The notes under the pieces were generated by a model. It made no database searches and was not told the DNA's origin. It saw only the letters and a list, made by a program, of their open reading frames with translations. A stretch of DNA of 64,000 nucleotides from Candidatus Aenigmatarchaeota archaeon (GTDB lineage: Archaea > Aenigmatarchaeota > Aenigmatarchaeia > CG10238-14): NCBI GenBank assembly GCA_030018415.1, contig JASEGC010000001.1, forward strand, positions 535,033 through 599,032, given 5' to 3'. Positions within the stretch are counted from its first letter, which is position 1; the number at the start of each line of letters is the position of its first letter. The position numbers and the translations under genes were made by a program. Shown here piece by piece: positions 12,255-39,646 of the stretch.

Positions 12255-12339
12255 ACGAACACTTGGTAGAAAATTATCTCTTGAAATATTAATTTATATC
12301 TTTTTTGTTCAAACTTCACGACAGAATATAAAAGTTATT

Positions 12340-17343: not shown

Positions 17344-17433
17344 AAAGGAAAAGGATATAAGAGAAAGCTTTACTTTTTCGGAATGCAAATATGATGAGAA
17401 GTTTTTTTTGGGCGATTGAACAATATATTATTG

Positions 17434-20400: not shown

Positions 20401-20712
20401 GGTGGGGCGATAACGACAACTTCTACGACAATCCCGATAACAACTTCTACCACAATCCCGATAACAACTTCTACGACAGTCTCAATAACAACTTCCACTG
20501 TTCTTGAAACCACAACCTTACCGATTGGGGTGAGCGAAAGAGAAATAAGTCATCTCTGGTTTTCACCTTTGATAGTTGTTTTTGTTGTTATTTTGGCTGT
20601 TGTCGTTTATTATTTAAGATTACGTAAGAAACCTGGAGTGGACGAAGTTTTTGAAGATTTGAAGGAGAAATGGAGTCAGCATACTTTTGTGGTGAGGCTC
20701 TCATTCACGTAG
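17434..20712 (+). CDS. Subtilisin-like serine protease (S8) with I9-like propeptide, multiple Ig-like domains, poly-Thr repeat and TM anchor
   Basis: The catalytic triad motifs are IIDTGI (Asp), HGHGTHCAG (His) and SGTSQATPHVAG (Ser). The signal peptide is MRQSLVFLLTLSISFLL. The ORF track starts at a TTG at 17416; I prefer the ATG at 17434. The C-terminus has TTSTTIPI repeats followed by a TM helix. Confidence 0.9.
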   Translation: MRQSLVFLLTLSISFLLITSISQQLFSRGEHLKKLDWELKESVYSKPNEKVRVIVWLDKSNGLSDLERIGKVRYDYDVISAVAMELSSDQLENLARVSSVKKIVLDREIRAFRIESMAIIKASTAASNFNVNGSNINISIIDTGIFNHTEFQTPNRIVKQKCYCNVAPGNCCQGLKESENATDDHGHGTHCAGIAAGEGNGHGHGVATNVSLFAVKVLNASGSGTESDLIAGIDWAVRNGTNIISLSLGATFDQFTDCYEVTSSEVVDNATKQGVVVVVAAGNEGSYGNETIAAPGCAKRAITVGAVDDADSIASFSSRGPTTDNRTKPDLVAPGVSITSTTNGLTSYGSASGTSQATPHVAGVAALLMQRFLQTHGYLPEPDRVKAILLTAVNTTGMNASGYQQRNNVYGAGRIDAYEALRIINFTKNKTISQGQEDDYKINVTNNDFKVTLYWPEDEDTNNNLDLIIRNFTDPTKNISFSTHANDSIEQVFVRNASNGFWEVFVRGVVGTNQTYYLASNVEILEDVTPPSLVLVRPENKTYTNRTNIPLNFSTDETNHTVWYTLDGENETVITGNTTFNVSSDGPHNITLYVNDSYNNINQSTQYFSVDTVPPVISIVSPVSNVTMNYSTKMIWFNISLNEHGNVSLFSVDAGENFTMDRMNDTYFYNLSTIPEGFHSVAFYVNDSVGWTNSSSVNFTIMINPNITDSRVDKRLVLLNESVNITANIFDDNLASVLTNITWPNGIYSLRNMSNSSSMYYYLFNATNQTGKYNVLIIVNDTFGNENNASLEFEVSGAVNVSSNVMNGTTAINVSVIVLYNGTNHVRNETTNTSFEFILPAGLWDLRFNTTRLNVTLFSTNLTENLTREIRLNDDVRMSYVLTNVRSIKTVALKFENFTFSSANLTFSFDSSLVNNRSNLEVYRCQGWSFANSDCESSWQRDSSDDTFNATINENNVTLITSNFSSFSLGENETITTTSTSTTTTISGGGGAITTTSTTIPITTSTTIPITTSTTVSITTSTVLETTTLPIGVSEREISHLWFSPLIVVFVVILAVVVYYLRLRKKPGVDEVFEDLKEKWSQHTFVVRLSFT
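20416..20500 (+). repeat. 24-nt tandem repeat (about 3.5 copies) encoding TTSTTIPI
   Basis: The units are ACAACTTCTACGACAATCCCGATA, ACAACTTCTACCACAATCCCGATA and ACAACTTCTACGACAGTCTCAATA, followed by a partial copy. Confidence 0.8.
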
Positions 20713-21191
20713 ATAGGCACGTTTGTCCTTACTGCTAGAGCTATCGCATCGCTCGGTCTTGAGTCGACGATCAAGAAACGATTCCCCCTCTGCAAAGTTA
20801 ATTCTGCATAGTAAGTGTTCTCTGAAAGCTTAGTTATCTTAACCATGATTGGCTTAACATCAAATCCTTCTAAAACATTCACGAATGTATCATGAGTCAT
20901 CGGTCTGAATTTCGTCACGTTAGATATTCCTTCTGATATGGCTGAAGCTTGATCTGGTGAGATGTAGAATGACAGTTCTGAACAGTCTGATTTTAACTGA
21001 ACGACTGCAAGTTTATCGACTGAGATAACTTTTTCTAACCTCATTTCAATAAAGCCCTCTGTTGCAAAAATTTTTCTAGTTTGTACATATCCGTAGAGTG
21101 AATAGATAGAAATCGCGATCAAGATCAAGATGATGATAGTTAAAGAATACATCAACCTTCTCTTTCTTCTAGAGCGTGTATACCAAATCAT
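20676..21191 (-). CDS. Bifunctional nuclease family (BFN/DUF151) protein with N-terminal TM anchor
   Basis: 171 aa. The N-terminus RSRRKRRLMYSLTIIILILIAISIYSLYGYV is a positive-inside signal-anchor. The BFN motifs RPMTHD ... VDSRPSDAIALAVRTNVPIYV are present. Confidence 0.7.
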   Translation of the reverse strand: MIWYTRSRRKRRLMYSLTIIILILIAISIYSLYGYVQTRKIFATEGFIEMRLEKVISVDKLAVVQLKSDCSELSFYISPDQASAISEGISNVTKFRPMTHDTFVNVLEGFDVKPIMVKITKLSENTYYAELTLQRGNRFLIVDSRPSDAIALAVRTNVPIYVNESLTTKVC

Positions 21192-21525
21192 CTATTGTTA
21201 ATTCGTGATGAAACTATAAATTTTTGTGGGTTAAGTTCGGCTATAATTTCTATAATGTAGAAAAAAATTTCCTATTTTTTGTCAACACTACTGAAAAATA
21301 GATATCCAATTATATACTAATTGATAGAAATCTTTTTCTCTTAACTTTTCAAAAAAGAATTTGTTAGACTTATTGGTCGTGAAAAAATGGAGGAAAAACA
21401 ATTCGACAAGTTCTGGGAAATTAAATGTCCTAAGTGCAACGAAACCATTGACCTGGAAATTCTTATCAATTTGTTAGGTAAAAAAATTGCCGATTCAAAA
21501 AAGAAAAAAAGCTAAAAAAATATGG

Positions 21526-22875
21526 ATGAAGTACATATTTTTTCTTATTCTTGTTTTTTTAATCAGCTTTTTCATATCTTATCAATTTGATATTGGTGGT
21601 CGTTATGTTCTTGTCATAAACGAAACAACAACTACTTCAACTGTTACTACAACTGTGAAGCCAAAGGTTAGAATTGAAACTGTTGAAGTCAAGGTCACAA
21701 CTACTGAAGCCACTACAACAACTAGGATTACAACCACAACATCAACTACAACTGTTTTAAAAACTACTACTACCGTCTCAAAGGCAGGGAGAGGCAGAGT
21801 AAAAGAAACGACCACAACTATACCAAAGCCTGTTGCAAAGATCATCATCAACGAGGTAATGTACGATCCTCCTGGTTCTGATCCAGGGGGTGAGTGGATT
21901 GAAATCTATAATAATGATACTTTTGATTGTGATATAGTCGACTGGAAATTTTTTGAGGATAATACAAACCATCGTTTGAATCTTGAGCAGGGTAGCATGA
22001 TAATTCCGGCGAAAGGATATGCGATAATAGCTGATAACGCGACTAACTTCATCGTCAACCATCCAGGTTTTAGCGGAACTGTAATAGACAGTGTATTTTC
22101 GTTGAGCAATATAGGTGAGTACATAGCTTTGAAAGATTACTCTTTGAGTGTAGTTGATGAAGTGACTTATAATAGTTCATGGGGTGGTAATGGGACGAAT
22201 AAGACACTAGAGAGGAAGGGAAATGAATGGTATGAGAGTTTGTTAGAGGGAGGGACACCTGGATATGAGAATAGTGTTTCTACTTTTGTGACAACTACAA
22301 CAACCTTGGCAACGACGACTACTACTGCTCCAACCACAACAGTTCCTGTTATTGCTGATCATGTGGTCATAAGTGAGATTTACTATGATCCTTTCAATGA
22401 AAGTTGTAGTGAATTCATTGAGTTATACAATCCAAAAAGTGAAGACGTTAATATCAGTGCTTGGACAATAGCCACCCCAACTTCTGCAAATGATGCTACT
22501 ATCCCGCCAAATTCTTTCATAAAATCTTATGGATTTTATTTGATTGTGGACAGTTGCTGGTATACAGGTAGAGATGAGTCTACTTGGCCTGAAGCTGATC
22601 ACAATGAAACAATAACACTGAGGAATGATGATGGCTGGATCATTTTAAAGAATAATCTCGGAACTATTGTAGATAAAGTTGGATGGGGAAATGCTACAAA
22701 TTATGAAGGAAATCAAACCCTTGATGTCAATGAAGGTAAGAGTATAGAGAGAAAACCAGGATACTTGAATTCAACAGCAGGAAATGGGTGGGATAGCGAT
22801 AACAACCTTGAAGACTTTATTTCCAGAGAAATACCAGAGCCTCAGAATTCTTCTTTTGTTGAGTTTCCAGGATGA
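21526..22875 (+). CDS. Membrane-anchored protein with two lamin-tail domains (LTD) separated by Thr-rich stalks
   Basis: There is an N-terminal TM helix (MKYIFFLILVFLISFFISY) and poly-Thr stretches. The two LTD signatures are IINEVMYDPPGSDPGGEWIEIYN and VISEIYYDPFNESCSEFIELYN, each followed by ..D.V.W(G). Confidence 0.8.
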   Translation: MKYIFFLILVFLISFFISYQFDIGGRYVLVINETTTTSTVTTTVKPKVRIETVEVKVTTTEATTTTRITTTTSTTTVLKTTTTVSKAGRGRVKETTTTIPKPVAKIIINEVMYDPPGSDPGGEWIEIYNNDTFDCDIVDWKFFEDNTNHRLNLEQGSMIIPAKGYAIIADNATNFIVNHPGFSGTVIDSVFSLSNIGEYIALKDYSLSVVDEVTYNSSWGGNGTNKTLERKGNEWYESLLEGGTPGYENSVSTFVTTTTTLATTTTTAPTTTVPVIADHVVISEIYYDPFNESCSEFIELYNPKSEDVNISAWTIATPTSANDATIPPNSFIKSYGFYLIVDSCWYTGRDESTWPEADHNETITLRNDDGWIILKNNLGTIVDKVGWGNATNYEGNQTLDVNEGKSIERKPGYLNSTAGNGWDSDNNLEDFISREIPEPQNSSFVEFPG

Positions 22876-22876
22876 A

Positions 22877-23095
22877 TTATTTCTTCCTCTTACTTTTCCT
22901 CAGATCCTCTCTTATGTATCTCATCTCTACTTCTAACTTACTGACAATACGCCATATTGCAAGAAGCTCTCCTTGACACAATAAACCTATAGCTAAAGCT
23001 GCTTCAGAAACTTCTGAAGAACCGAATAGAACCCAAATGGCTATAGCGATGATAAGAATAAACAATATCCAGAAAACAATTTCTTCATTCTTCAC
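22877..23095 (-). CDS. Small membrane protein, unknown function
   Basis: 72 aa with a GTG start and one or two TM helices. A frameshifted 28-codon paralogue of its N-terminus lies immediately upstream at 23096-23181. Confidence 0.4.
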   Translation of the reverse strand: MKNEEIVFWILFILIIAIAIWVLFGSSEVSEAALAIGLLCQGELLAIWRIVSKLEVEMRYIREDLRKSKRKK

Positions 23096-23603
23096 TCAAG
23101 CACCCCTTACAAGGATGTAAATGGCTAACCCTACGATTATAAGGAGCAAAATCCAAAAAAAACGATATCTTCTTTTTTCATATACTAGAGATTGTTTTTG
23201 TTATTCAAATTTTTTCGATCAGCAGAACCCTTCTCTTGAAAACTCTTTCTTTTATTGAAATTGTGTAGTTAAATTAATTTTTCGTCCCAAAAAAAGTTAG
23301 TAGGGAATTCACTTTTTCTAAGTACCTACTTTTGATTTGAGCACTAAATCTGGGTCTATTCCTGGTCTTTCTGTAGCTATAACCTCAGCGGAGGGTTCAA
23401 ATTTTCTATATTCCTCGTCAGCAACAGGATAGAGTGGTGTTTTGATACTTATGCTTCGATGAGATACTTTGAACGTTATTGTCCTGGATGAAAACTCGAT
23501 AGTAAATTTCTTTCTACTCTTGTGACATATCACTTGATGTTAGTAACATCTTCAACTATCGAATAAAAAATTACTTATTTTTTGATGTAAATAAAACTTA
23601 AGT

Positions 23604-23700
23604 AAGGTAGAAAATCTTTTTATTTTTAAAGAAAATAATTTTCTGATTAATAGAAGTTAAAATCTTAAATATTATGACAGATTTAAATTTAAATCTTTTA
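23604..23700 (+). promoter_or_regulatory. Bipartite upstream cassette, copy 1 (block A AAGGTAGAAAATCTTTTTATTTTT; block B TATGACAGATTTAAATTTAAATCTTTTA)
   Basis: Blocks A and B begin 69 nt apart. Block B is TATA-box-like. The GGAGGT Shine-Dalgarno and the ATG at 23740 follow. Three more copies occur in the window. Confidence 0.7.
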
Positions 23701-23739
23701 TTTCCTATCATATTACCATTAAAGATGGAGGTAGAATAA

Positions 23740-24762
23740 ATGAATAGTAAACTCTTTGTAGTAGTGACTTCAGCGATACTGCTCTTAACAGCAGTTCCAG
23801 TTTTTGCAGCAGACTTTCCAGTAGAAGCACCTGTGCCGAACCGTGAGCCAAGGGTCTTTGAATGCGGTAAATGGTTCGACATAGGAATTGAAGATACTGG
23901 AGTAGGCAGTGACGCAGGCGTAAACCCAACTGAATGGCGTCTTGGTATGTATGCTTTCACAGGAGAGAACATACACTGGATAGTGGTAGTCAGGGATTTG
24001 AATGGTGCAGAAGACATAAGTTATGCTAAAGTAACAGTTGATGGGCTAACAGAGGCTCTATGTCGACCAATAATTATGGGTGACGGAGAATGCTACGATG
24101 AGGTACCAGCATGGGAAACAGCACAAGACGGATTCGATTCAAGGTTTGACAAAGCCTTCGAATGTATAGTGACAGTAGAGCCACAATGGTACGGTGGCAG
24201 TTCAGTCAACATAGACGGATATGATCAAACAGGAGCATACAGCACGATGGATGTGGCAGAGCAATGGTTCTTCAACCCAGCAATTATAGTAGATCTTGAC
24301 ACGAACGATGGTGCTCCGAAGATTTGGTTTGAACAAAGACCGTTAGGACAAAAGGCACCATCAGGAAACAGACTAGAAATAACAAACCTAGCAGAAGGTG
24401 GAGTACTTCTTTGGCTATGGATTTCAGCGGACGACTTGACAGACCCAACAAACTCAGGTGCAATCTGCCCTGACAGCAATGTTCTAGATGTTGATCAATA
24501 TATGGAATACAAGGGTCAGATAGGTACTTTCATCGGTCCTTGGAGCTACATTACGAACCCAAGTGCGATAGATGGGTGCGAGATACCACCTGCGACATGT
24601 GAAGGAGCACAACCGCTATTAGGTCCGGGAACTGATCCACTAACAAATATCTTAGGCAACATGCTAACAGCAGAAGTACAATTTAGATTAGAGTATCCAA
24701 TACCATGTACACCAGGAACTTTCACGCAAGGATTGATCCACATAATAGTGAGAGCAGTCTAA
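23740..24762 (+). CDS. Secreted protein of unknown family, compositionally atypical
   Basis: 340 aa with the signal peptide MNSKLFVVVTSAILLLTAVPVFA and GGAGGT 7 nt upstream of the ATG. There is no TM anchor, no Thr linker and no valid N-x-S/T sequon. GC content is visibly higher than in the neighbouring genes. Confidence 0.75.
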   Translation: MNSKLFVVVTSAILLLTAVPVFAADFPVEAPVPNREPRVFECGKWFDIGIEDTGVGSDAGVNPTEWRLGMYAFTGENIHWIVVVRDLNGAEDISYAKVTVDGLTEALCRPIIMGDGECYDEVPAWETAQDGFDSRFDKAFECIVTVEPQWYGGSSVNIDGYDQTGAYSTMDVAEQWFFNPAIIVDLDTNDGAPKIWFEQRPLGQKAPSGNRLEITNLAEGGVLLWLWISADDLTDPTNSGAICPDSNVLDVDQYMEYKGQIGTFIGPWSYITNPSAIDGCEIPPATCEGAQPLLGPGTDPLTNILGNMLTAEVQFRLEYPIPCTPGTFTQGLIHIIVRAV

Positions 24763-24815
24763 GACCTTTAAAGAGCTGAAGAAAACTTTGGTCTCTTTTT
24801 CTTTTTATTTTTTAA
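24762..24815 (+). terminator. Possible terminator: short hairpin plus T-rich tract
   Basis: AGACC(ttt)AAAG ... CTTTGGTCT can pair, and CTTTTTCTTTTTATTTTTT follows immediately after the stop codon of the 340-aa gene. Confidence 0.35.
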
Positions 24816-24871
24816 AATTTCCGAAAAATTAAACGATACATTTACGTCTTTTTTCCACTTAAGTTAATACC

Positions 24872-26296
24872 ATGAAAAAATACATTCTTTTAGTAACAGG
24901 ATTAATAATAGCAACCGTTCTAGGTTCTATCGTATTCGCGTATGTTCCGAATAAAGACAAGATGGATGATTTTCTAAAGGAAAAACTCCAAGAATTAAAA
25001 GATGGCGAAAACATTTCTGTTATAATAGTTTTTGAAAAAGAACCTTTTCCAAGAATGGAAGGAGAGATAGAGAATAGATTCCACATCATTCCGGCTATTT
25101 CAGCAAAAATTTCTGCTAAAGAAATCCGAAAATTATCAGAATCGAAAGAAATCAAGAAAGTTTACCTTAACAAAAAAGTTCATATACTCTTAGACGATTC
25201 AGTCTCGATGATCAAAGCGGATAAAGTGCATTCAGAAGGAATTGATGGTACAGGAGTTAAAGTTTGCATCGTTGATACAGGTGTGGACGATTCTCATCCC
25301 TATTTAAAACGATTAATTGCAGAGTACGATTTTGTTAACAACGATAGCGATGCTACAGATGATAACGGACATGGTACACACATAGGAGGGATAATCGCAT
25401 CACAACATCCGACTTACAAAGGTGTTGCGCCAGGATCTTCATTGATAGCAGCAAAGGTTCTAGATGCAAGTGGTTCTGGAAATTACAATGATGTCATGGC
25501 AGGTATCGAGTGGTGTGTTGATAATGGAGCAAACGTAATTAGTCTAAGCCTAGGTGGAGAAAGGACGTACACCGGAAATTGTGATGATGACATCTTGGCT
25601 ATATTGGTTAATAATGTTGTTGCAGATGGCGTGATAGTCTCTGTTGCGGCAGGAAACTCTGGAAAATATGGAATAAGTAGTCCTGCTTGCGCTTCTAAAG
25701 CGATCGCTGTGGGTGCTGTGGATAAGAACAAAAGAGTGATAGGTTGGTCGAGTAAGGGTTCAGAACTTGACATAGTCGCGCCAGGAGTCGATATCTACTC
25801 TACTTACTTGAACAACGGATGGAGATCTCTATCAGGGACTTCTATGGCTACCCCGCATGTGGCAGGAGTGACAGCATTATTGTTGCAAACAAAACCTGGT
25901 GCAACAGTGGACGAAACAGCGGACCCAGTCAGCGCATGCTACGAATGTTTGTGGTGGGGGTCATGTTTGAATGGATACTATAGGAGGGTTTTATGTACAT
26001 CAAGTGTACAAGGAGCTGGAATAGTGGATGCTTACGAGGCATATCAATCGTTAAGACCATCACCTACACCTACAACTACTACAACATCGTCTACAACAAC
26101 CACGAGTACAACAATTGTGACTACCACAACGACAGCTCCAACGACAACCACGATTCCATCAACTTGGCAAGAATGTTACAACTACTGTAGAGATGGAATA
26201 ACAAACCTACCAAAAACTTGTTGCGCATATTCTTGGATAATTTTTCATGTCAAGTATGGTTACTGTCGAAACGAGCCAAGAGATATTTGCGATTAA
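24872..26296 (+). CDS. Secreted subtilisin-like serine protease (S8) with I9-like propeptide, Thr linker and C-terminal Cys-rich domain
   Basis: The triad motifs are VCIVDTGVD, DDNGHGTHIGG and SGTSMATPHVAG. The linker is PTPTTTTTSSTTTTSTTIVTTTTTAPTTTTIPS. The C-terminus is WQECYNYCRDG..CCAYS...CRNEPRDICD, with no TM helix. Confidence 0.9.
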   Translation: MKKYILLVTGLIIATVLGSIVFAYVPNKDKMDDFLKEKLQELKDGENISVIIVFEKEPFPRMEGEIENRFHIIPAISAKISAKEIRKLSESKEIKKVYLNKKVHILLDDSVSMIKADKVHSEGIDGTGVKVCIVDTGVDDSHPYLKRLIAEYDFVNNDSDATDDNGHGTHIGGIIASQHPTYKGVAPGSSLIAAKVLDASGSGNYNDVMAGIEWCVDNGANVISLSLGGERTYTGNCDDDILAILVNNVVADGVIVSVAAGNSGKYGISSPACASKAIAVGAVDKNKRVIGWSSKGSELDIVAPGVDIYSTYLNNGWRSLSGTSMATPHVAGVTALLLQTKPGATVDETADPVSACYECLWWGSCLNGYYRRVLCTSSVQGAGIVDAYEAYQSLRPSPTPTTTTTSSTTTTSTTIVTTTTTAPTTTTIPSTWQECYNYCRDGITNLPKTCCAYSWIIFHVKYGYCRNEPRDICD

Positions 26297-26347
26297 TCCT
26301 CTTCTTTTAAAATCAGACTTCTTCTAGATGAAAAATTAATTTCAATA

Positions 26348-26444
26348 AAGTAGTAAAATCTTTTCTTTTTATTATTAGAATCATTAAAAGGTAGTATAAG
26401 CTTAAAATAAATATTTTATGAAATTAATAATTTAAATCTCTAAT
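26348..26444 (+). promoter_or_regulatory. Bipartite upstream cassette, copy 2 (most divergent)
   Basis: The sequence is AAGTAGTAAAATCTTTTCTTTTTATT ... TATGAAATTAATAATTTAAATCTCTAAT. It shares the 5' extension GAAAATTAATTTCAATAA with copy 3 and lies upstream of the 778-aa gene. Confidence 0.6.
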
Positions 26445-26458
26445 ATTACAACATATTA

Positions 26459-28795
26459 ATGGTGAAAAACATGAAAAAAATCTTTTTCATCTCAGTGCTA
26501 TTAATTTTCCTAATTATACCGTCTGTCATCGCGTGCTCGAGTCCAGTCGTTTATAACGAGTATGGCGTCCCTATTTCTCTGTATGGGAATGGAATATTAA
26601 CGATCAACGGAAGCAAGTATGATTCAAGTATTTCCCTATTACAGTACAACTTAACAGTGAGCAACACGAACAATCAAAGTTTCACTATCAACTTTAATTC
26701 ATCTCCAGATCTCCTAAACTATGTTTTTGGCAACACTGCGACTCTTGACCCTAACGAGAAAAGGAAGGTTCCTATTTATGTATACATAGATGGCGATGAT
26801 AAAGTCGGAGAAATCAGAGTAACTGGCCAATGTGCAGATGGAATGAGTATGCCGTATTCCTCAACTTATTACTCGTTCTTTAAGTTAGTCATAGACGGCA
26901 GGAACATAAAACCGCCGAACGTGACTGGCTGTGAGAACATATACCAGATGAACGGATGCTACGATGGATACTACAGGAATTATTACTGCAGCAACAACAC
27001 TCCTCAATACTCTGAATCCTGCACTTCTTATTGCTGTCAGAAAAAGGCTGGAAAAGATGGATACTGTCAGAACAATGTTTGCATAGATCCTATAACTTGT
27101 GAGGATGAGTGTTCTTTCACAGGGAGAGAGTGTCGAGATGGCGATGCTTACTCTTGTGTTCTTGAGGAAGATGGTTGTTACCATCTTGTGTTAAAAGAGG
27201 AATGTGGAGATGATGTTTGTATAGACGGTCAATGCGTCAGCTCTTCTATACACGGAAAGATCGCATTCTTATGTCAAAGTGATGATTGTAACGATGGCAT
27301 TGAGAGTCAGTTGATATCCTGGTTGAATTCTAAAGGCTGGATTGTAGATACCAAGGCATACGATTCTTGGGATGATGAAGAGTTGGATGATTACGATGTC
27401 ATGATGTGTTCAGATCAACTGAAAGCTTGCAAGATTTCTCCAAAATCTCCTGTCTACATCGAGCATAAACTTCAGAATAAACCTTTCATCGAAATCTCAG
27501 ATTACAGAGAGGCTCAGTCTGCCTATGCTTTCAACTACGTCAAAACCCCTTATGGATACTTGGAGAAAGGTAAGAGCATTTTCATCACCAAGACCGAAGA
27601 CCCAATAACTGAGGTATTTTCCACCAAGACCAAGATATTCTCAGACGATAAAAAAATTACAGTCATGCCAGATTATCGTTTGACATCTCTCTCTGTAGAT
27701 TTAGCAGATGTGGAAGAGGATAAAGGCAGGTCGACTCTGTTCAAGGTTGACTCGCTAACAAGATATGCCTACGTAGGATGGTTCTACAAAGCATCAGTGT
27801 TTGATTTGACAGAAGACGGTAAAAAATTGCTTCTAAGAACTGTCCTTTGGGCAGCATGTGGCGATGAGTGTTTTGACCCTTCCAGTAGGAATCGTCCCCC
27901 GGTCGCGAAAGCTATGATAATACCGATCGCGTATGAAGGCATGATTGTTCTATTTGATGCATCGCAGTCTTATGACCCAGAAAACCAAACATTAACTTAT
28001 TACTGGGATTTTGGGGATGGTTCTAATTCAGGCTGGATTTCCGAGAGTATCACGACTCATGTTTACGATTCTCAAGGCATTTTTAACATTACTTTGATAG
28101 TCAGCGATGGCGAATTGGATTCGATTCCAGACATAAAAACACTCACCATACTTCCAAAGATCAAGAATAGGATTGCTTTTGTCTGTGGCAAGGAAGGTTG
28201 CATAAAAGATACAGAACAAGAATTGATGAAATTCTTGCAAGACAACGGATATTTTGTCGAGGGAAGAACACAGGATTCTTGGACAGATGAAGACTTGAAC
28301 AATTTTGACTTCATGGTATGCTCAGATGCTGTCAAGGGCTGTGGCATCAAATCATGGACTGCTGTTTTCGATAGACATGCTAACAAGATGATGGGATTCC
28401 TCGAGATTTCAGATTATCAATACATCAGGGCAGGCTACAAGTTCGGTTACACGAGTACTTATAGCGGCTATTATTCCAAGGACAGGAGTATAAAGATAGT
28501 GGGAAACGACCCGATAACGTCTGACCTTTCAGGTAAAGTTTATAATAGAGACGACATCATGGGTGGAATCTTCACTTCTTCTTTGGAGCCAGTCGCGATA
28601 AACTTAGTGAACATGAACAAGAAGGATGTGTCGGTCTTGTTTAAGGTTGATACAAACGAAAAACATGGGAGGTATGCTTATGTTGGTTGGTTCTATAGAT
28701 CTTCCATAAAAGACTTAACAGATGATGGCAAAAAAATGCTCTTGAGAACGATCAGATGGGTTCAGTGTGGAAATGTCGAAGGTTGTATTCAGTAA
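26459..28795 (+). CDS. Secreted multidomain protein: Ig-like N-domain, Cys-rich module, two copies of an unknown ~200-aa alpha/beta domain flanking a PKD domain
   Basis: 778 aa with a signal peptide; an alternative ATG at 26471 is preceded by GGTGA. The PKD signature is VLFDASQSYDPENQTLTYYWDFGDGS. The duplicated domain reads ..IAF(L/V)C......(E/T)(S/Q)(Q/E)L...L...G(W/Y).V......SW.DE(E/D)L(D/N).(Y/F)D.M.CSD...RYAYVGWFY..S..DLT.DGKK.LLRT..W. Confidence 0.8.
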   Translation: MVKNMKKIFFISVLLIFLIIPSVIACSSPVVYNEYGVPISLYGNGILTINGSKYDSSISLLQYNLTVSNTNNQSFTINFNSSPDLLNYVFGNTATLDPNEKRKVPIYVYIDGDDKVGEIRVTGQCADGMSMPYSSTYYSFFKLVIDGRNIKPPNVTGCENIYQMNGCYDGYYRNYYCSNNTPQYSESCTSYCCQKKAGKDGYCQNNVCIDPITCEDECSFTGRECRDGDAYSCVLEEDGCYHLVLKEECGDDVCIDGQCVSSSIHGKIAFLCQSDDCNDGIESQLISWLNSKGWIVDTKAYDSWDDEELDDYDVMMCSDQLKACKISPKSPVYIEHKLQNKPFIEISDYREAQSAYAFNYVKTPYGYLEKGKSIFITKTEDPITEVFSTKTKIFSDDKKITVMPDYRLTSLSVDLADVEEDKGRSTLFKVDSLTRYAYVGWFYKASVFDLTEDGKKLLLRTVLWAACGDECFDPSSRNRPPVAKAMIIPIAYEGMIVLFDASQSYDPENQTLTYYWDFGDGSNSGWISESITTHVYDSQGIFNITLIVSDGELDSIPDIKTLTILPKIKNRIAFVCGKEGCIKDTEQELMKFLQDNGYFVEGRTQDSWTDEDLNNFDFMVCSDAVKGCGIKSWTAVFDRHANKMMGFLEISDYQYIRAGYKFGYTSTYSGYYSKDRSIKIVGNDPITSDLSGKVYNRDDIMGGIFTSSLEPVAINLVNMNKKDVSVLFKVDTNEKHGRYAYVGWFYRSSIKDLTDDGKKMLLRTIRWVQCGNVEGCIQ

Positions 28796-28796
28796 A

Positions 28797-29078
28797 CTAC
28801 ATAGGAATTCCGAATGCTTCTGTTAACCTTTTTACTTTCCTAAGCTCGTTTATGTGATCATAACCCTTGGGCGTGAGTTTGTAGAACGTTCTATCATTCT
28901 TCTTAACTTCCTCTATAAAATCGTTAGATAAGAGTAAACTCAGGTATTCTTTAAGGGAAGAATGCGATAAGTTAGCACCGTACATGATATGCGTTGGCTT
29001 GGCTTTTCCATCCTCTCTCTGGATTATGTTCAGGATGTCCATCAATATAAGGAGTTTTGACCTTCGCTTCACTTGCAA
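28797..29078 (-). CDS. Small winged-helix transcriptional regulator (COG3432/HTH_45-like)
   Basis: 93 aa. The segment LILMDILNIIQ....AKPTHIMYGANLSHSSLKEYLSLLLSNDFIEE.....FYKLTPKGYDHINEL is the typical archaeal wHTH pattern. It overlaps the upstream 7TM gene by 10 nt. Confidence 0.65.
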   Translation of the reverse strand: MQVKRRSKLLILMDILNIIQREDGKAKPTHIMYGANLSHSSLKEYLSLLLSNDFIEEVKKNDRTFYKLTPKGYDHINELRKVKRLTEAFGIPM

Positions 29079-29698
29079 ACCACCCGGATAAGCATGTAGA
29101 GGAGGGAAACAAAGCCAGTGATCAAGAATATGTTAGCGACGAAGTACACCGACCCGCTAAACGGTGTTAACAACAAAAGGAGGTGAAATACTAGTATCGA
29201 CGTAAAAGCATAAGTCACAAGACCAGAATTCAAGTTTTTTTTCTCCTTCAGGTTGGCTGCGCATCTAAAAACGATGAAAGAAATTAACGCAACAGATAAC
29301 ACGTGGAACTCGAAGGAGCTAGCATACCAAATTGGAACGAAGAGTATGAAGAACTTACTCCTAAGTTTTTTCGGAAGGTACGACAGGAACAACATAAAAT
29401 AAGCAAACAATGAGACGATGTAGTAAAGCCTGAAACCGTAGTAGTTGATCAAGTTGATGCTTATACTCGAACCATGATACAATTCAAGAGTAGCATAAGT
29501 AAATAGGCTCGGGACGCTCAACACCAAAAATCCCAAACCAAGAGTTAGAAAACCTAAGAAAAGAAAAAGATGAGATTTTTCAGACGTTATCCTGTGGGCT
29601 TTAAAACCGAAGTAGCTGACGAGAAAACAGATTATCGCTGAGCAAGTATAGAAGATTGAGGTGACAGCATAGAACCAAAGAGGTATGAGTTCTGTCAT
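29069..29698 (-). CDS. Polytopic (about 7 TM) membrane protein, possible sensor partner of the wHTH
   Basis: 209 aa with about seven hydrophobic helices and no soluble domain. It is translationally coupled to the wHTH gene downstream. Confidence 0.55.
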   Translation of the reverse strand: MTELIPLWFYAVTSIFYTCSAIICFLVSYFGFKAHRITSEKSHLFLFLGFLTLGLGFLVLSVPSLFTYATLELYHGSSISINLINYYGFRLYYIVSLFAYFMLFLSYLPKKLRSKFFILFVPIWYASSFEFHVLSVALISFIVFRCAANLKEKKNLNSGLVTYAFTSILVFHLLLLLTPFSGSVYFVANIFLITGFVSLLYMLIRVVCK

Positions 29699-29883
29699 AC
29701 TTTACCATATAAAAACTCAATTTCAAATAGTTTGGTGCAGACTTAAAATCTAGATTTTTCCTTCATAAAAGAGATATCTCACTAAAGTATACTTATATCA
29801 CCGGATAAGAGTAGGCAGTGGGAAAACTACCTCCATCTGCTCTTTCTTTCTTTTTTTCATTCAAATAGAAAATTAATTTCAAT

Positions 29884-29980
29884 AAGGTAGAAAATATTTT
29901 ATTTTTTCCTAGAAAGATTTTTTAGAAGAGTACTAAGCAAAAGAAGGAATTTTATGACATATAAATTTAAATCTTTAACT
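29884..29980 (+). promoter_or_regulatory. Bipartite upstream cassette, copy 3
   Basis: The sequence is AAGGTAGAAAATATTTTATTTTTT ... TATGACATATAAATTTAAATCTTTAACT. AAGGTAG to TATGAC spans 69 nt. It lies in the divergent intergenic region between the 7TM/wHTH pair and the 624-aa gene. Confidence 0.7.
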
Positions 29981-30005
29981 ATTAAGTACTAATAATGTGT
30001 TGTGA

Positions 30006-31880
30006 ATGAAAAAAATTTTGTTCATCGCTACGTTAGCAACTCTATTCTTGATAACTTCGGTTATCTCAACTACGATTTACGTCCGTCCAGGAAAATTGAT
30101 AGTTCATGCAGATGATTATCCTAATGCAACCTCTGTCGTTTATAACTTAACGCTCAGGAATGATAACGAGTTTCCAGTCATAGTTTCTTTCGTCAAGTCA
30201 GGAAACATCCAAACCCTTATTACAATCTTAGAGGATGGGTTCACGATGGAACCTGCTGAAATGAAGGATGTAGGCTTAGAAATAAGTTTGACAGGTCCAG
30301 CCACGGCTTCGGGCACCATCACAGTTGGGTTTACCCCATCTGAAGGTCAAGGGATGCCAGTGACTTATGGAGTGGATGTCACGATCTACGGAAGGGGTGG
30401 AGGCACGACAAAGAAGTGTGCTGGGACGAAAACTTCTTGTGGAACTTATCCAGACTGTAAAGATCTGACGAAATTAGACGGATGTTACAACGGTTATAAA
30501 AGGAGTTATTATTGTTCGAACAACCAACCAAAATATTCTGAATCATGCACGGATTACTGTTGTCAACAATTCTACGGGAGCGTAGGGAAATGCCAGAGCG
30601 GGGTTTGTAAAGGCCAAGCTTCTCCACCACCAGTTAAACTAGTTCTTAACATAACAAATGGATTAGGAGGTACTAGATCTGCAAAGATCACTCTTTATAT
30701 CCCAGGTACTAGTACGATCGTGAACACTTCAACTATCAACGGTTACGGCACGATTCATTCTTCAAATTCAACCGTAGATTTCATGATGGAATTCGATTCT
30801 TCTATACTGATTGTTCTACTGAAAAGCTTAAACCTGACAAAATTATCTGGAACTTCACAGATAATCATAGATGTTGTACCTACTTCGATCCCGAACGTGT
30901 CTCTAATTAAAGCATACAAAATTTCAATCCCAAGTACTTTCTCGTTTACAGGAATAATCTTGAAGATCAAATATTCTACTCTGTCTTTTGGAAACGAGCA
31001 AGGTTTAGCCATCTACAAATGTGGTTCTTATAACGATTTAACGAATGTATGCAATGATAATTGGGTTAAAATCAGCGCAACAAGAGATACTGTCAACGAC
31101 ATAATATCAGCAGAACTTTCGAGTTTTTCTGTGTACGCTCTGGGAGAGTCACAACAAACAACTACCACGACCACGACTCTACAAACCACAACCACACAGT
31201 CATCTTCATCCAGCAGTAGAAGTAGCGGTGGAACAACCACAACGACAACAATCCCTGAAACTCAAGGGAGTTTAACTTGTTCTGATGACGATGGGACAAA
31301 CTATGAGAACAAGGGTACTTGCACTCTGGATGGTTCAACTTACACAGATTTTTGTTCGAGTAACACAGCTTTGAGAGAATTCTACTGTTCCGATAGTATT
31401 TGTGCGATGGAGGAAAAGGATTGTGATGCCTACTGTAAAGAAAAACACGGACAGAACCAAACAGGAACTTGTTCGCAGGGTGCATGCGTCTGTAAGGAGA
31501 TCGTTATAGTAGAAGAAGTGAAGGAAGAGGGTAAGAAACCAACAGGTTTGTTCATCGATATTTTGGGAGCTAGCATAGCATCCAATGCATTCACAATAGG
31601 AACAGTCGTAGTCTTAGCTTCATTCGGGATATTCGGATGGAGGTATCAGGACAGACTGAAACAATTTTTCACGAGTACGTCTCATGGCAAATCAAAAGGT
31701 TCTTACTCTATTACCAGAGAAACACCGAGAGTTGGGTATGTCGAGATAAAGCCAGTAAAGAAAGAAATTGAACAACCAAAAGAACAACCCAGAGCACCAC
31801 CGATCGGGAATGATGTCAAGAATAAAGTGATAGAAGAGATAAGAAAAAGGGCAATAGAAGAGGATAGGAAGTTCAAATAA
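30006..31880 (+). CDS. Membrane-anchored surface protein: Ig-like N-domain, Cys-rich module A, beta-domain ending SSFSVYALGE, Thr/Ser linker, Cys-rich module B, TM helix, K/E-rich cytoplasmic tail
   Basis: 624 aa. The signal peptide MKKILFIATLATLFLITSVIS is paralogous to that of the 778-aa protein. Module A reads DGCYNGYKRSYYCSNNQPKYSESCTDYCCQ. The TM helix is FTIGTVVVLASFGIFGW. Confidence 0.75.
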   Translation: MKKILFIATLATLFLITSVISTTIYVRPGKLIVHADDYPNATSVVYNLTLRNDNEFPVIVSFVKSGNIQTLITILEDGFTMEPAEMKDVGLEISLTGPATASGTITVGFTPSEGQGMPVTYGVDVTIYGRGGGTTKKCAGTKTSCGTYPDCKDLTKLDGCYNGYKRSYYCSNNQPKYSESCTDYCCQQFYGSVGKCQSGVCKGQASPPPVKLVLNITNGLGGTRSAKITLYIPGTSTIVNTSTINGYGTIHSSNSTVDFMMEFDSSILIVLLKSLNLTKLSGTSQIIIDVVPTSIPNVSLIKAYKISIPSTFSFTGIILKIKYSTLSFGNEQGLAIYKCGSYNDLTNVCNDNWVKISATRDTVNDIISAELSSFSVYALGESQQTTTTTTTLQTTTTQSSSSSSRSSGGTTTTTTIPETQGSLTCSDDDGTNYENKGTCTLDGSTYTDFCSSNTALREFYCSDSICAMEEKDCDAYCKEKHGQNQTGTCSQGACVCKEIVIVEEVKEEGKKPTGLFIDILGASIASNAFTIGTVVVLASFGIFGWRYQDRLKQFFTSTSHGKSKGSYSITRETPRVGYVEIKPVKKEIEQPKEQPRAPPIGNDVKNKVIEEIRKRAIEEDRKFK

Positions 31881-31915
31881 ACATCTTTATCTTCTCATAG
31901 AAAAAATATTTAGAA

Positions 31916-32011
31916 AAGGTAGAAAATTTTTTTATTTTGCCTATAAAAGGAGAAAAATTTTCTATCTTCTTTAAAAAAGCTTTTTATGACAGATTAAATT
32001 TAAATCTTTAT
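31916..32011 (+). promoter_or_regulatory. Bipartite upstream cassette, copy 4
   Basis: The sequence is AAGGTAGAAAATTTTTTTATTTTG ... TATGACAGATTAAATTTAAATCTTTATT. AAGGTAG to TATGAC spans 69 nt. It lies upstream of the operon encoding the 159-aa, 877-aa, wHTH and 213-aa proteins. Confidence 0.7.
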
Positions 32012-32065
32012 TCCTTCATAGTGATAATAGAAGAAAAATAACCTCCCAGTAGTAACGTGATTTAC

Positions 32066-32536
32066 ATGAAAATGCTGTTTGCAGTTTTTATTGTCGTTTC
32101 CTTACTGATGATTCAATCGACTCTTGCTCTGACAGCTTATCTACGTCCTCCCAAGATGACGATTCGTCTGAACACTTCCGATACGATAGAAAGATCCTTG
32201 GAGATTAAAAATTTTAACAACATCACGATAGGCATCGGTACAAGAATTGTTGGGAATTTATCGGAGGTAGTGCGAATAGAAGAGTCAAGTTTTTATTTAG
32301 AGCCGAACGAAACGAGAACTTTGGATTTCAAAACAAAAGCAAACGATCCTGGAGTTTATGTCGGTGAGATACAAGTGACTTATTCAGCAAACTCTGGTCT
32401 ACCAGTTACTCTACCAGCTGAGATAATTGTCGTGGCAACGGAGAAATCAACACAAAATTACAACAATATTTTTATTTTAATCGTCACCCTAATCGTTGTA
32501 GTTGCCGCTATCATATTTATGAAAAGAGGGAGATGA
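32066..32536 (+). CDS. Small Ig-like (NEW3/CARDB-like) surface protein with signal peptide and C-terminal TM anchor
   Basis: This is the ORF-track entry 32057-32536, which starts at a GTG; the first ATG is at 32066. The protein is paralogous to the N-domain of the 624-aa protein (..[11 protein letters not shown]...[11 protein letters not shown]...[11 protein letters not shown]......[10 protein letters not shown]) and ends with a TM helix plus KRGR. Confidence 0.6.
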
Positions 32537-35166
32537 AGTCCATGTTTTGGCTCAAAAACGTCCTCTGCGGAATTTTTTTCATTCTTGTATTGACCTTAAC
32601 ATTCTCCGCAGTTCATGCTGTAAAAGTTGCCCTCGTCGTCAAGAACGTGAGCAGTTTATCTTACGTTCACGAAAAGAAAATCAGTAACGTTTTAGCACAG
32701 ATGAATCTAGAAGTCATTCCGATCGATAAGGATTCAGTAGTTAACTATTCAGAATTTGACCTCATAGTCGTTGCTGGTAGGCCAGGAAACGTCTATTCTT
32801 ACGAACATCTAGACAGTTTTGTGGCTCAGCTTCCAGTGAACGATTACCCCACGATAGCGATAGATGCAGCCTATCCAGACGATTGGGGCTGGTGTTTACC
32901 CGGTGGAATAAGTACTGTTTCTTCGACTGGTATACAAAAGATAAAGATCGTTAATAACACTCTTCCGATAACTTCAAAGTACAAAATTGGAGACATAATC
33001 CAAGCTCATATCATAGAAGGGAAAACGATGGTCGATCTAGTTGAGGGAAAGTACAAGTTGACCTCACTCGCATCTTTAACCAGCAACGATAAAAACACTG
33101 TGATAGCTGTTGCTGAACCGAAAACAAGTCTGTACAAAAATCAGACAACGAAAGCTAGGATAGTCTTCTTCGGTATAACAAATCCTTTATACTGGACTGA
33201 TGAAGCCCTTCAACTCTTCAAGAATTCTGTCGATTGGGTTTTATCTGACGTTGACGGAGATGGAGTCTTCGACTTTAAGGATAACTGTCCCCTTGTTTAC
33301 AACCCTGACCAAGCAGATCTAGACAAAGATGGTATAGGAGATGTTTGCGACAACTGTCCCCTTGTTTACAACCCTGACCAAGCAGATCTAGACAAAGATG
33401 GTATAGGAGATGTTTGCGATGACGATGTCGACGGTGACGGCATTCCAAACGATGTAGATAATTGCCCTCTAAAATACAACCCCGACCAATCCGACAAGGA
33501 TGGGAATGGAATCGGAGATGTTTGTGAAATACTTCCTTACCAAGTCTTTCTTGACGTTGATGATGACAGTATAAATGAAACAGCTATCAACGCTAACAAT
33601 ATAACAGACGATGGTTTTGAAATCTATCAAGACCCAAGCTCAAACTCCAAAGCCATAGCAATAGACGGAGATTTTGACGGAATGACAGATTGGCTGATCG
33701 ATATAACGCCTTATGGGACATACGACAAGTACTGGGATCCTGATGACATGATCTTAACGAAAGTCAACAGGACAGATTACGATTACTACATCGATGCGAA
33801 CGGTGATAACGTAACTGATGTCATATACAACTCAAAGTATAAAGCGTTCATAACAAGGCTTGATGTTGATTTTGACTCTAAATTTGAAATAGCTCTGGAT
33901 AAGGATTTTGATGGATCTTATGACGATTATAAAGATTTAGACTCATCCTCTACGCTTCTGGATAAAGTTGACGGCGACAGAGACAGGAAGAAAGATTTCA
34001 TCATCATGAAGGATAAGATCACAAAACCAGTAAAGTACTGGGATCCTGATGACAAAATACTGACTGATATCTTAGAAAAAGATGTGGATAATGATGGAGA
34101 TTTGGAATTCGCGATCGATGTGAATGGGGATAATAAATTCGACAGAATTTACGATAAAGGCATACTATACGATCTGTCAGACATAACTGTCTATTCCGTC
34201 TCGATAACCCCAACTTCCCCTGTCGAAGGTGATAGTGTGGAAATTATTGCAATGGTTAAGAACATCGGAGGTTACGATGCCACTAATTTTACGGTAGAAT
34301 GTATAGTTGATGGAAACAGCATAGCAAACAAGACCATTTCTTTGTCTGCTAGTAGCTCGACAGACCTAAAATTTGTTTGGAGTGCTCAAATAGGCTCTCA
34401 CACTATAAAAGTAAACGCTGATTCGGATGGTTTCATACTAGAATCTGATGAAGAAAACAACATGAAATCAACGAGTGTATCAGTATCTACCCGTATCCCA
34501 ATTGTTAGAGACATATTAAGAGATCCAATTTTAATACCATCAGGGAATGCGAGTTTCAGAGATTTCCCAGTGAAAGTTGAAATAGAGGTCGGAAGCAACA
34601 TCACGGTATCAGGCAAGTTTGGTAACAATTTAAATTACGACCTTTATAACGTCACTTTCAACCTGGAAGCAGAGGGATTGAACCCAGAATGGTATTCGAT
34701 CCATCCAAAAAAATACGATAGGATAGCAAAGAAGGAATCGAAAGATGTTTCTATCAAGTTTTACATACCGGAAAATGCTGAAATTTACACTTACACTATC
34801 ACTCTAAAGGCTGATGCAAATTCGATCGATGGTAAAAAGAGCTATTCACATAAATTTGCCTTGATGTTGAAAGAGAGGATCGAGATAACAACCACTACAA
34901 CAATCGAAGAAACAACAACAACGATTCCTCCTGTGGAAGAACCTTCTCCATTAACAGGCTTTTACGCATTTGTTAAGGAGAATCTACTGTCAGTAGTAAT
35001 AATAATCATAATAGTTATCATCGTGATCGTCTGGAAAGTATTCAAGATAAAAATCGAGTTTGTCGGTAAAAAAGGACAATACATCTATGGCAAGGGTTGG
35101 GTTTCTGTACAAAGGTTTAAATCCTTTTCTGTTTCAAGCTTAAAAGATTTACTTACTAAATGGTAA
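32533..35166 (+). CDS. Large surface protein: unknown alpha/beta domain, thrombospondin type-3 (Ca-binding) repeats, Asp-rich repeats, CARDB domain, Thr linker, TM anchor
   Basis: 877 aa. The TSP3 repeats read [24 protein letters not shown] twice, then [24 protein letters not shown]. The CARDB domain reads [38 protein letters not shown]...ESDEENN. The C-terminus has [14 protein letters not shown] followed by a TM helix. It overlaps the preceding gene by 4 nt. Confidence 0.85.
33283..33420 (+). repeat. Near-perfect 2 x 69-nt tandem duplication inside the TSP3 repeats
   Basis: AACTGTCCCCTTGTTTACAACCCTGACCAAGCAGATCTAGACAAAGATGGTATAGGAGATGTTTGCGA(C/T) occurs at 33283-33351 and again at 33352-33420. 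The copies differ only at the last base. Confidence 0.9.
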
Positions 35167-35171
35167 TTAAT

Positions 35172-35507
35172 ATGAAACCTCAAACAATCAAAGACATCTT
35201 TGATGTGAGTCAAGCCTTTGCTTCTGGAAAAAGATTACTTTTGCTGTTCATCCTGAAGAACGAGCCTATGGGTTATACAATCATAACCAAATACTTCGAG
35301 AGGATGGGTATTCCCATAGGAAGTAGCGAAGTCTACAAGCATATAAAACAACTGATTAATGGAGGATATATCACCAAGAAAAGTAATGCTTACGTCCTGA
35401 CTTTGAAGGGTTTGAGAGCTGTTGAGAATACGATCGACATAATAAACACGCCACCAACTACCCCAGAAGTGAAGTTATCCTTCAGAGAAGGCAAGAAGAG
35501 TAAATAA
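35172..35507 (+). CDS. Small winged-helix regulator (ArsR/PadR-like)
   Basis: About 111 aa. The wHTH pattern is KRLLLLFILKNEPMGYTIITKYF......SSEVYKHIKQLINGGYITKK.NAYVLTLKG. It abuts and overlaps the end of the 877-aa gene, consistent with one operon. Confidence 0.55.
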   Translation: MKPQTIKDIFDVSQAFASGKRLLLLFILKNEPMGYTIITKYFERMGIPIGSSEVYKHIKQLINGGYITKKSNAYVLTLKGLRAVENTIDIINTPPTTPEVKLSFREGKKSK

Positions 35508-35523
35508 TATTTAAAGTGGGAAA

Positions 35524-38216: not shown

Positions 38217-38249
38217 AAATCAAAACTAATGAAATGATGCTTATAAACT

Positions 38250-39620: not shown

Positions 39621-39646
39621 ACCTTCACCTATATATTATTTTCTCT

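Follow-up and report, generated by a model that had tools for sequence, protein, structure and literature searches.

A bipartite element at fixed spacing upstream of secreted-protein genes in Candidatus Aenigmarchaeota, probably a composite promoter

What is the bipartite non-coding element that recurs, at almost constant spacing, ahead of four genes or operons for secreted proteins in a Candidatus Aenigmarchaeota genome? The question is posed by a 64-kb stretch of DNA (hereafter the window; G+C content 33-41%) from a metagenome-assembled genome, in which an earlier, sequence-only reading had described four copies of a cassette composed of a distal block A and a proximal block B. That the cassette is a real regulatory switch is all but certain, and its design seems not to have been described before. 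We consider it to be probably a composite archaeal promoter of ~130-150 bp that acts as DNA, in which block B would form the core and block A an upstream protein-binding module, common to a cluster of genes for secreted surface proteins.

Direct reading of the window located all four cassettes where they had been noted, each on the + strand just upstream of a gene encoding a protein with a signal peptide. Three places in the window, and no more, carry the block A sequence AAGGTAGAAAAT (23604, 29884, and 31916), and a divergent form lies at 26348; the TATGAC or TATGAA that opens block B lies at 23673, 26417, 29953, and 31985. Copy 1 (23585..23711; nhmmer E 1e-14; block A hidden Markov model (HMM) E 7e-7) carries block A at 23604-23629, with GGTAG at 23606, and a TGACAGA box at 23675-23681, followed by a perfect 18-nt palindrome, AGATTTAAATTTAAATCT (23679-23696), that contains the TATA-like TTTAAATC (23688-23695). 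A Shine-Dalgarno (SD) sequence, GGAGGT (23727-23732), precedes the ATG at 23740. Copy 2 (26328..26454; nhmmer E 6e-11) is the most divergent; its block A (26348-26373) reads AGTAGT and has one inserted T (GTAG^T^AAAAT), and is followed by TATGAAA (26417-26423), TTTAAATC (26431-26438), a likely SD, GGTGA (26461-26465), and a likely ATG at 26471, the open reading frame (ORF) list placing the start at 26459. In copy 3 (29865..29978; nhmmer E 1.5e-18), an upstream TAGAAAAT box at 29866 precedes block A (29884-29909; GGTAG at 29886) and a third TAGAAA at 29910, with TATGACA at 29953-29959, TTTAAATC at 29966-29973, and the ATG at 30006. The architecture of copy 4 (31897..32022; nhmmer E 1.3e-19) comprises an upstream TAGAAAAA at 31898, block A at 31916-31941 with GGTAG at 31918, an inverted box ATTTTCTATC at 31957-31966 that is kept in orthologues of the same type, TATGACA at 31985-31991, TTTAAATC at 31999-32006, and a start at GTG 32057 or ATG 32066.

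The 69-nt spacing previously counted from AAGGTAG to TATGAC was recovered in equivalent form, GGTAG and TATGA being 67 nt apart in copies 1, 3, and 4. Since small indels occur between TATGACA and AATTTAAATCT, the distance from GGTAG to TTAAATC is the steadier measure, and this was 83, 83, 81, and 82 nt in copies 1 to 4, respectively. A 5' extension had been ascribed to copies 2 and 3; it is common to these two but not peculiar to them, being part of the conserved cassette in all relatives.

Such an arrangement is far beyond chance. A strict bipartite pattern gave three matches in the window against 0.00 expected from 100 dinucleotide shuffles, and a looser pattern, GTAG-N74-84-TTAAATCT, gave four against 0.25. 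Separate profile HMMs for block A and block B matched solely at these four places in the 64 kb (block A E 7e-7 to 3e-5), the next block A match (E 0.19) being the inverted box within copy 4. Scanning 596 Gb of GTDB genomes with the strict pattern returned 27 single scattered matches; just one of them lay outside bacterial records, and no relative of the source was among them. The sequence-only reading had itself proposed that chance recurrence would refute it, and on these pattern scans the refutation did not materialise.

Conservation was assessed in metagenome loci encoding relatives of the 340-aa protein that follows copy 1 (78 loci with up to 10 kb of flank, 683 kb in total). A cassette profile built from the four window copies and iterated once with nhmmer gave 48 matches, comprising 35 non-redundant full copies on ~13 distinct contigs. 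All related cassettes lie on the gene strand, with two to four per related locus and four in the window. An ORF begins within ~60 nt downstream in 33 of the 35 copies, and most such ORFs begin with a signal peptide. The genes preceded belong to the 340-aa, 624-aa, and 159-aa families, a family with a long hydrophobic, signal-anchor-like N-terminus, and a 1712-aa giant CBM96 protein; within the 683 kb searched, no gene outside these families was found to have the cassette ahead of it. Proteins downstream of the cassettes in relatives are just 34-50% identical to those of the window, a divergence at which neutral DNA would be saturated. The same stretch of the window was also present in a 16.5-kb Logan contig.

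Despite that divergence, 31 copies from these ~13 contigs could be aligned, and ATAAGGTAG, the most information-rich part of the alignment, and TGACA were at least 90% conserved across them. The conserved parts are ATAAGGTAG, TGACA, and TTAAATCTTTA. They fall within a distal box, ATAAGGTAGnAAAT..TTTATT, for which the consensus of the whole distal part is TAkAAA..TTTnAATAAGGTAGnAAAT...TTTATT, a proximal box, tGAcAgA, and a TATA element, TTTAAATCTTTA(A/T)T, around which many copies have the palindrome AAGATTTAAATCTT. The final stretch of the cassette is gene-family-specific and mostly ends in a GGAGGT or GGTGA SD before the start codon.

Spacing was measured on 32 full copies, and all 32 fell within 81-83 nt from GGTAG to TTAAATC (82 nt in 19, 83 nt in 11, and 81 nt in two). 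The spacers between the blocks fall into 10 sequence groups, all 42-43 nt long, with a mean between-group identity of 0.45 versus 0.34 for shuffled sequence; semi-conserved A-runs at alignment columns 44-48 and 71-75, plus a TA, are present. On these alignments the spacer sequence has drifted nearly to saturation while its length has changed by no more than one base, which we read as selection acting on block A, on block B, and on the distance between them. The earlier view of the spacer as unconserved is correct for the four window copies, but between orthologous copies in other genomes its sequence is conserved, and it has the semi-conserved A-runs. Likewise, the fixed distance of block A was borne out, while the helical phase attributed to it is not assignable.

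Block B resembles a core promoter. In archaea, the core promoter carries a TATA box close to TTTAWATA, centred ~26-27 nt upstream of the transcription start. TTTAAATC is found in all four window copies and TTAAATC or a one-base variant in 32 of the 32 measured copies, and TTTAAAT(C) resembles other TATA-like boxes in the window, e.g., gTTAAATTTAAG upstream of the genes at 4558-5037(-) and 54909-55514. From the end of the TATA element to the likely start codon is 33 nt in copies 2 and 3, 44 nt in copy 1, and at least 50 nt in copy 4, distances compatible with a transcription start ~26-27 nt downstream of the TATA centre. We therefore infer the TATA function and the start site from motif and position: block B would be the core promoter, with TTTAAAT(C)TTTA as its TATA box, and transcription would probably start ~25 nt past it, giving a short leader (~10 nt in copies 2 and 3) that carries the SD. 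A GGAGGT or GGTGA SD lies between the TATA element and the start codon in copies 1 and 2 and in most relatives; in copy 3, the sole SD-like sequence, GTGA, abuts the ATG. Block B had been interpreted as a TFB recognition element (BRE) and TATA region. The TATA-like box is indeed in every copy measured, but the BRE part is not clear-cut, as AGATAAG, ACAGAT, or ACATAT occupies its position, purine-rich yet unlike the GAAAG/GGAAA at other promoters of the window. Archaeal activators that help TFB and TBP usually bind just upstream of the BRE, and the tGAcAgA box lies just upstream of the TATA element, where a BRE-proximal regulator would sit.

Block A, located 81-83 nt upstream of the TATA element and at about -110 from the predicted start, is the putative recognition site of a DNA-binding protein, which would be sequence-specific given the G/C-containing core, strict orientation, and fixed distance of the block. 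Because the distance is held to within 1 bp while the spacer drifts, we infer that this protein would make a fixed-geometry contact with the machinery, or a protein, at block B. The intervening ~80 bp would be bent, looped, or wrapped to bring the two blocks together, and all surface-protein genes of the set would then be switched together.

The distal module also appears to be separable. The promoters of the 624-aa-type gene in five relatives keep the core ATAAATCTTTAACTAT... and do so without the ~83 nt that, in window copy 3, carry block A, the spacer, and TGACA; the alignment of the window promoter with these relatives has many gaps. One other lineage, represented by a set of near-identical overlapping contigs (L052-L055 and L063), has a full cassette at its 624-like gene, with a spacer of the same sequence group as in window copy 3. 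The basal promoter can therefore exist without the upstream part, which adds to it, and the comparison indicates a module that can be gained, lost, or homogenised.

Further boxes surround block A. TAGAAA(AT) is phased by 21-22 nt in copy 3 (29866, 29888, and 29910), copy 4 (31898 and 31920, plus an inverted one at 31957), and copy 1 (23609 and 23630, plus an inverted one at 23638). Across relatives, GRYAGRAAW boxes occupy fixed alignment columns on alternating strands, TAGAAAA lies 22 nt upstream of block A in eight of 29 copies, and extra TAGAAAA boxes reach 3.4 per kb, compared with 0.6 per kb elsewhere in the 683 kb. The pattern would fit multiple sites for one factor.

Three other arrangements of related motifs were recorded. 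Copy 4 and its orthologues contain an imperfect dyad (31886-31998; 53-nt arms, 72% complementary) that covers block A and the spacer, reaches into the start of block B, and is specific to promoters of the 159-aa type. In another Aenigmarchaeota lineage, the 340-family promoters (L032, L034, L046, L058, L060, L074, L077, and L029) share a different conserved design, consisting of an rTAGrAA box, GTTAATACyAT, GAGTrGCAT, TATAAATAG, a T-run, and AGTGATAAGATG, with the TAG box ~56 nt from the TATA; these promoters suggest that the TAGAAA-type box may be older than the 82-nt architecture. Finally, an exact inverted GGTAGAAAAT within TTGGTAGAAAAT is found at 12263-12274, between a TATA-like GATATAAATTAA and the ATG of a class V fructose-1,6-bisphosphatase gene (11160-12254, -). 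This is a repressor-type position, and the occurrence may be due to chance.

Which genes, then, does the cassette precede? Behind copy 1 lies the gene for a 340-aa secreted protein (23740..24762, +; QMD36_03365) with no Pfam match. Its 89 homologues have named sources solely in Aenigmarchaeota/Aenigmatarchaeota. The AlphaFold (AF2) model (pLDDT 85.5) consists of tandem beta-sandwiches with a weak Foldseek likeness (TM 0.27-0.33) to adhesin and matrix proteins of bacteria, namely AgI/II, MSCRAMMs, RbmA, and TasA. Copy 2 precedes a 778-aa secreted protein with a Cys-rich region and a PKD domain (26459..28795, +), a paralogue of the 624-aa secreted protein behind copy 3 (30006..31880, +; QMD36_03390; each of the two locus tags denotes a protein of an NCBI Candidatus Aenigmarchaeota genome that is identical to the window's). 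The latter combines an N-terminal Ig-like domain with a Cys-rich region, the former also found in the 159-aa protein and the latter in the 778-aa protein. Copy 4 precedes an operon (32057..35166, +) encoding a 159-aa Ig-like protein with a C-terminal membrane anchor (32057-32536, +) and an 877-aa protein with CARDB and thrombospondin-type-3 repeats (32533-35166, +). It had been stated that only two of the downstream proteins are paralogous; in fact, three share a homologous N-terminal domain (778-aa and 624-aa; 159-aa versus 624-aa, E 2e-10), so that three of the four promoters drive domain-sharing genes.

The order of the cluster is conserved: 340-aa, 778-aa, a helix-turn-helix HTH_45 gene with a DUF7521-like gene on the opposite strand, 624-aa, 159-aa, 877-aa, a 115-aa winged-helix protein, a 213-aa protein, and topoisomerase I. 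No cassette was detected in the profile scan at the other secreted-protein genes of the window (1175-aa, 1098-aa, 474-aa S8 protease, and 462-aa lamin-tail-domain proteins). The proposal of a dedicated regulon for a surface apparatus thus holds in that the same gene families recur in ~13 contigs, but 'surface apparatus' over-states the case, since the products look like beta-sandwich adhesin-like proteins with no recognisable machine among them.

Flanking the cassette genes (17416-26296) are two S8 subtilisin-like proteases (1098 aa and 474 aa) and the lamin-tail-domain protein, which have long Thr-rich linkers. A conserved block also lies beside the surface cluster across Aenigmarchaeota (36162-41939 in the window; also L107-L112) and includes topoisomerase I, a 456-600-aa coiled-coil protein, an Exosortase_EpsH archaeosortase-like protein (39647-40156), DUF460, and an ERCC4 nuclease. 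The archaeosortase-like product may process anchored surface proteins. No tRNA genes are carried by the window.

The sequence-only reading had pointed to three local winged-helix genes as potential regulators. Two of these lie in the conserved cluster, while the third (54082-54339) is outside it. The first encodes a 93-aa HTH_45 protein (28797-29078, -; Pfam) whose matches to sequences in the PDB include Sso10a (1e-6) and AspA (2e-4). It is paired with a gene for a DUF7521-like membrane protein (29069-29698, -; below the Pfam cut-off), and the pair (28797..29698) diverges from copy 3, a position kept in six related loci. The second encodes a 115-aa (probably 111-aa) HTH_45/PadR-like winged-helix protein (35160..35507, +), which is 79-89% identical in cluster-bearing relatives and whose family seems confined to Aenigmarchaeota. 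Its gene has a conserved TATA-like TTTAAATCC of its own (35116-35124), inside the 3' end of the 877-aa gene, and the promoter and leader, AAAGnTTAAATyCTTTTC...TTACTCACTAAAnGGTAATTAnATG, are kept in distant lineages with a different upstream gene; it is therefore not simply the last gene of the copy 4 operon. The two cluster HTH_45 proteins are the obvious candidate factors on the grounds of gene position, and we treat them as leads only.

Two further elements were observed between these genes. A perfect 14-nt palindrome, AAAATCTAGATTTT (29745-29758), lies in the promoter region of the minus-strand DUF7521-like/HTH_45 operon and is invariant, or nearly so, in six lineages (the window, L033, L035, L036, L040, and L045); in relatives it is ~20 nt downstream of a minus-strand TTTAAATA. 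Its half-sites, AAATCT and AGATTT, are the hexamers of the block B palindrome in swapped order, and it looks like an autoregulatory operator. Closer to copy 3, the minus strand of 29827-29836 reads ATGGAGGTAG, a ATGGAGGTAGAT-like element conserved in six lineages between the DUF7521-like and 624-aa genes. This element matches the SD-region 12-mer of 340-type leaders, contains GGTAG, and is followed by a frame of just 12-14 codons; it may be a box akin to block A, by which the winged-helix operon would join this regulon.

Several observations weigh against the composite-promoter reading or narrow it. The cassettes of L052-L055 and L063 are nearly identical, differing by substitutions only, and such near-identity within one genome means that some of the similarity reflects copying and not independent selection. 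At the 778-aa gene, the promoters of three relatives keep block A with a different proximal half and a TATA-like sequence ~57-67 nt away; the 82-nt rule is therefore not universal and holds only where both blocks are present. The BRE is non-canonical, AGATAAG or ACAGAT taking the place of an A-rich RNWAAW-type element. TAAATCTTT is found elsewhere in the window too (11 observed versus 4.6 expected), so that part of block B may be generic promoter sequence; as a cassette-specific signature, TAAATCTTT was rejected. The extra-box pattern carries moderate weight because the motif is loose, the DNA A/T-rich, and the orthologous promoters non-independent. As for the regulators, the 115-aa gene adjoins topoisomerase I in four distant lineages that have no detectable cassette within 10 kb, and the 93-aa gene was not seen near the L052-L055 cassettes; hence, neither candidate is strictly co-located with the cassette. 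The 115-aa protein was accordingly set aside as a dedicated regulator by co-distribution, the cassette-free lineages and its own promoter leaving the link at most tentative.

A stronger form of the promoter reading, which we hold only tentatively, is that the cassette is 'enhancer-like': the distal element, ~110 bp upstream of the start, would need a rigid distance to act, with ~80 bp of DNA looped or wrapped by protein, possibly the Sso10a/AspA-type winged-helix proteins of the cluster, and the ~83-nt portion would be a portable module whose gain or loss at single surface-protein promoters rewires the regulon.

Among the alternative explanations, two are comparably improbable. In the first, the cassette comprises tandem promoters and block A is a second BRE/TATA, made up of AGAAAA and TTTTTATTTT or of the TTTAAATA just upstream of GGTAG; initiation there would yield a longer transcript, or else a short upstream RNA, and the spacing would be that of two adjacent pre-initiation complexes. 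AGAAAA does fit a purine-rich BRE followed by a T-rich run, and a perfect TTTAAATA lies directly 5' of AGGTAG in about half of the 31 aligned copies. Yet TTTTTATTTT has three mismatches to the TTTAWATA-type boxes of other window genes, and the TTTAAATA of relatives is replaced by TTTCAATA, CTTAAGTA, or TTTAGAAA in the window and in L052-L055, so that, unlike GGTAG, it is not conserved as a TATA box. Moreover, the region that would be transcribed shows the lowest conservation within the cassette and no conserved fold.

The second, which we rate no higher, makes the cassette an architectural or chromatin element, in which ~80 bp with alternating A- and T-runs are bent or wrapped by an abundant protein (Sso10a-like HTH_45, histone, or Alba) and block A merely anchors a structure that boosts a strong promoter, with no dedicated regulator. 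It would account for a constraint on length without one on sequence, and for the A-runs (columns 44-48 and 71-75) that are semi-conserved. The Sso10a/AspA family, to which the two local winged-helix proteins belong, is known to bridge or coat DNA, and the 115-aa protein is both highly conserved and found more widely than the cassette. The most conserved positions, however, are the G/C-containing GGTAG and TGACA, which argues for base-specific recognition, and the cassette is limited to a few gene families and does not mark strong promoters in general. Self-similarity of the profile at a ~30-nt period was not significant (best 2.8 standard deviations above the mean among 6903 comparisons). An internal repeat, be it a resemblance of block A to block B or a ~30-nt period, was rejected on the same self-comparison.

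That the cassette is a promoter module copied by paralogue duplication or gene conversion, with inherited spacing and a block A devoid of separate function, strikes us as very unlikely. The 778-aa, 624-aa, and 159-aa genes do share a domain, copies 2 and 3 share the 5' extension, all L052-L055 cassettes are near-identical, and the 624 promoter either has the whole upstream module or lacks it altogether. Against this, blocks A and B are kept across lineages at 34-50% protein identity while the spacers have separated into 10 groups of unchanged length; drift after copying would have eroded block A as it did the spacer. Moreover, most lineages have the cassette at genes of the 340-aa family, which is not related to the others.

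Least likely of all, and barely credible, is a structured RNA (5' untranslated region or small RNA), a leader peptide, or a repeat resembling a miniature inverted-repeat transposable element (MITE): although pairing of block A with the inverted TAGAAAAT box could give a hairpin of 19 pairs in copy 4 and its orthologues, the hairpin of copy 4 has a sub-threshold miRNA-like Rfam match, and TATGAC contains an ATG, RNAalifold found zero consensus pairs over the 31 copies, the hairpin shows no compensatory changes, the cassettes are always oriented towards the gene, and viral contigs gave just single scattered matches. With no pair showing a compensatory change, the 159-type hairpin more plausibly represents a second DNA site in inverted orientation. 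The sole Rfam match in 21000-36000 was to a miRNA precursor model (26 bits against a gathering score of 88; E 0.26) and was discounted. An upstream ORF from the ATG of TATGAC was also discarded, the frames being 21, 5, 12, and 3 codons long in copies 1 to 4 and broken by indels. No terminal inverted repeats common to the four copies were found, and a MITE or mobile repeat was rejected on that account and because the cassettes always face the same few gene families. Viral association was dismissed in turn, a looser pattern in IMG/VR yielding 51 single matches of scattered length that were taken as chance.

The composite promoter can be compared with several known systems. EarA sites at the fla operon of Methanococcus maripaludis and ArnR/ArnR1 boxes at the Sulfolobus flaB promoter are likewise sequence-specific boxes upstream of the BRE/TATA at surface-structure genes, present in several short copies with genes for small HTH regulators nearby. 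In those systems the sites immediately precede the BRE (about -40 to -80) and occur at one operon, whereas here the box is ~82 bp from the TATA, to within 1 bp, at four or more promoters; the comparison is one of description, with no homology of boxes or regulators shown. The upstream activating sequences (UAS) of haloarchaea and methanogens, namely the GvpE-UAS (gvp), the Bat-UAS (bop regulon), and the Ptr2 sites of Methanocaldococcus jannaschii, where the activator is thought to recruit TBP/TFB, similarly mark a small set of co-regulated promoters with a common upstream element. They abut the BRE and belong to unrelated organisms, whereas the element here is distal, and we know of none among them with a distal element at a rigid ~80 bp or a conserved architecture of ~130 bp.

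Further afield, bacterial loop operators such as lac O1-O3, at 92 bp, depend on helical phase for their spacing; as in the cassette, two sites lie ~80-90 bp apart and the distance matters while the intervening sequence does not. In lac, however, a bacterial repressor binds two copies of one operator, whereas here the two blocks differ in sequence and the loop is a prediction from spacing. The vsp, vlp, and vlhA cassettes of Mycoplasma, which switch by a hypermutable repeat or site-specific inversion, also place a near-identical non-coding cassette before many surface-protein genes with differing coding regions, but no phase-variation device was seen here. A phase-variable cassette of this type was rejected, there being no length-variable tract in L052-L055/L063 and no recombinase domain in the cluster proteins scanned. 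In kind, the cassette is an archaeal promoter with an upstream, regulon-defining site, and it differs from known examples in its distal box, its rigid spacing of ~82 bp, which a wide lineage has retained, and its size of ~130 bp and modularity.

Gene regulation in DPANN archaea is almost unstudied because nearly all are uncultivated. A full-text literature search of incomplete coverage found no description of the element or of Aenigmarchaeota promoter motifs, which is weak evidence of novelty. The analysis provides a concrete, testable regulon, with an element of ~130 bp, a target set of secreted beta-sandwich, PKD, CARDB, and Cys-rich proteins that likely serve attachment, and two candidate regulators. 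The cassette profile can be used to annotate surface-protein regulons of Aenigmarchaeota and to choose promoters for genetic tools, and should the element be just a strong promoter with an ordinary upstream site, it would still be a useful, if unsurprising, regulon motif. To our knowledge, known archaeal activator sites abut the BRE; a rigid distance of 81-83 bp is unusual for archaea and could reveal looping or wrapping as a mechanism of control. If true, this would constitute long-range, geometry-dependent control, a mode not documented in archaea, and the first regulatory circuit defined for the Aenigmarchaeota (DPANN), probably controlling attachment to surfaces or hosts.

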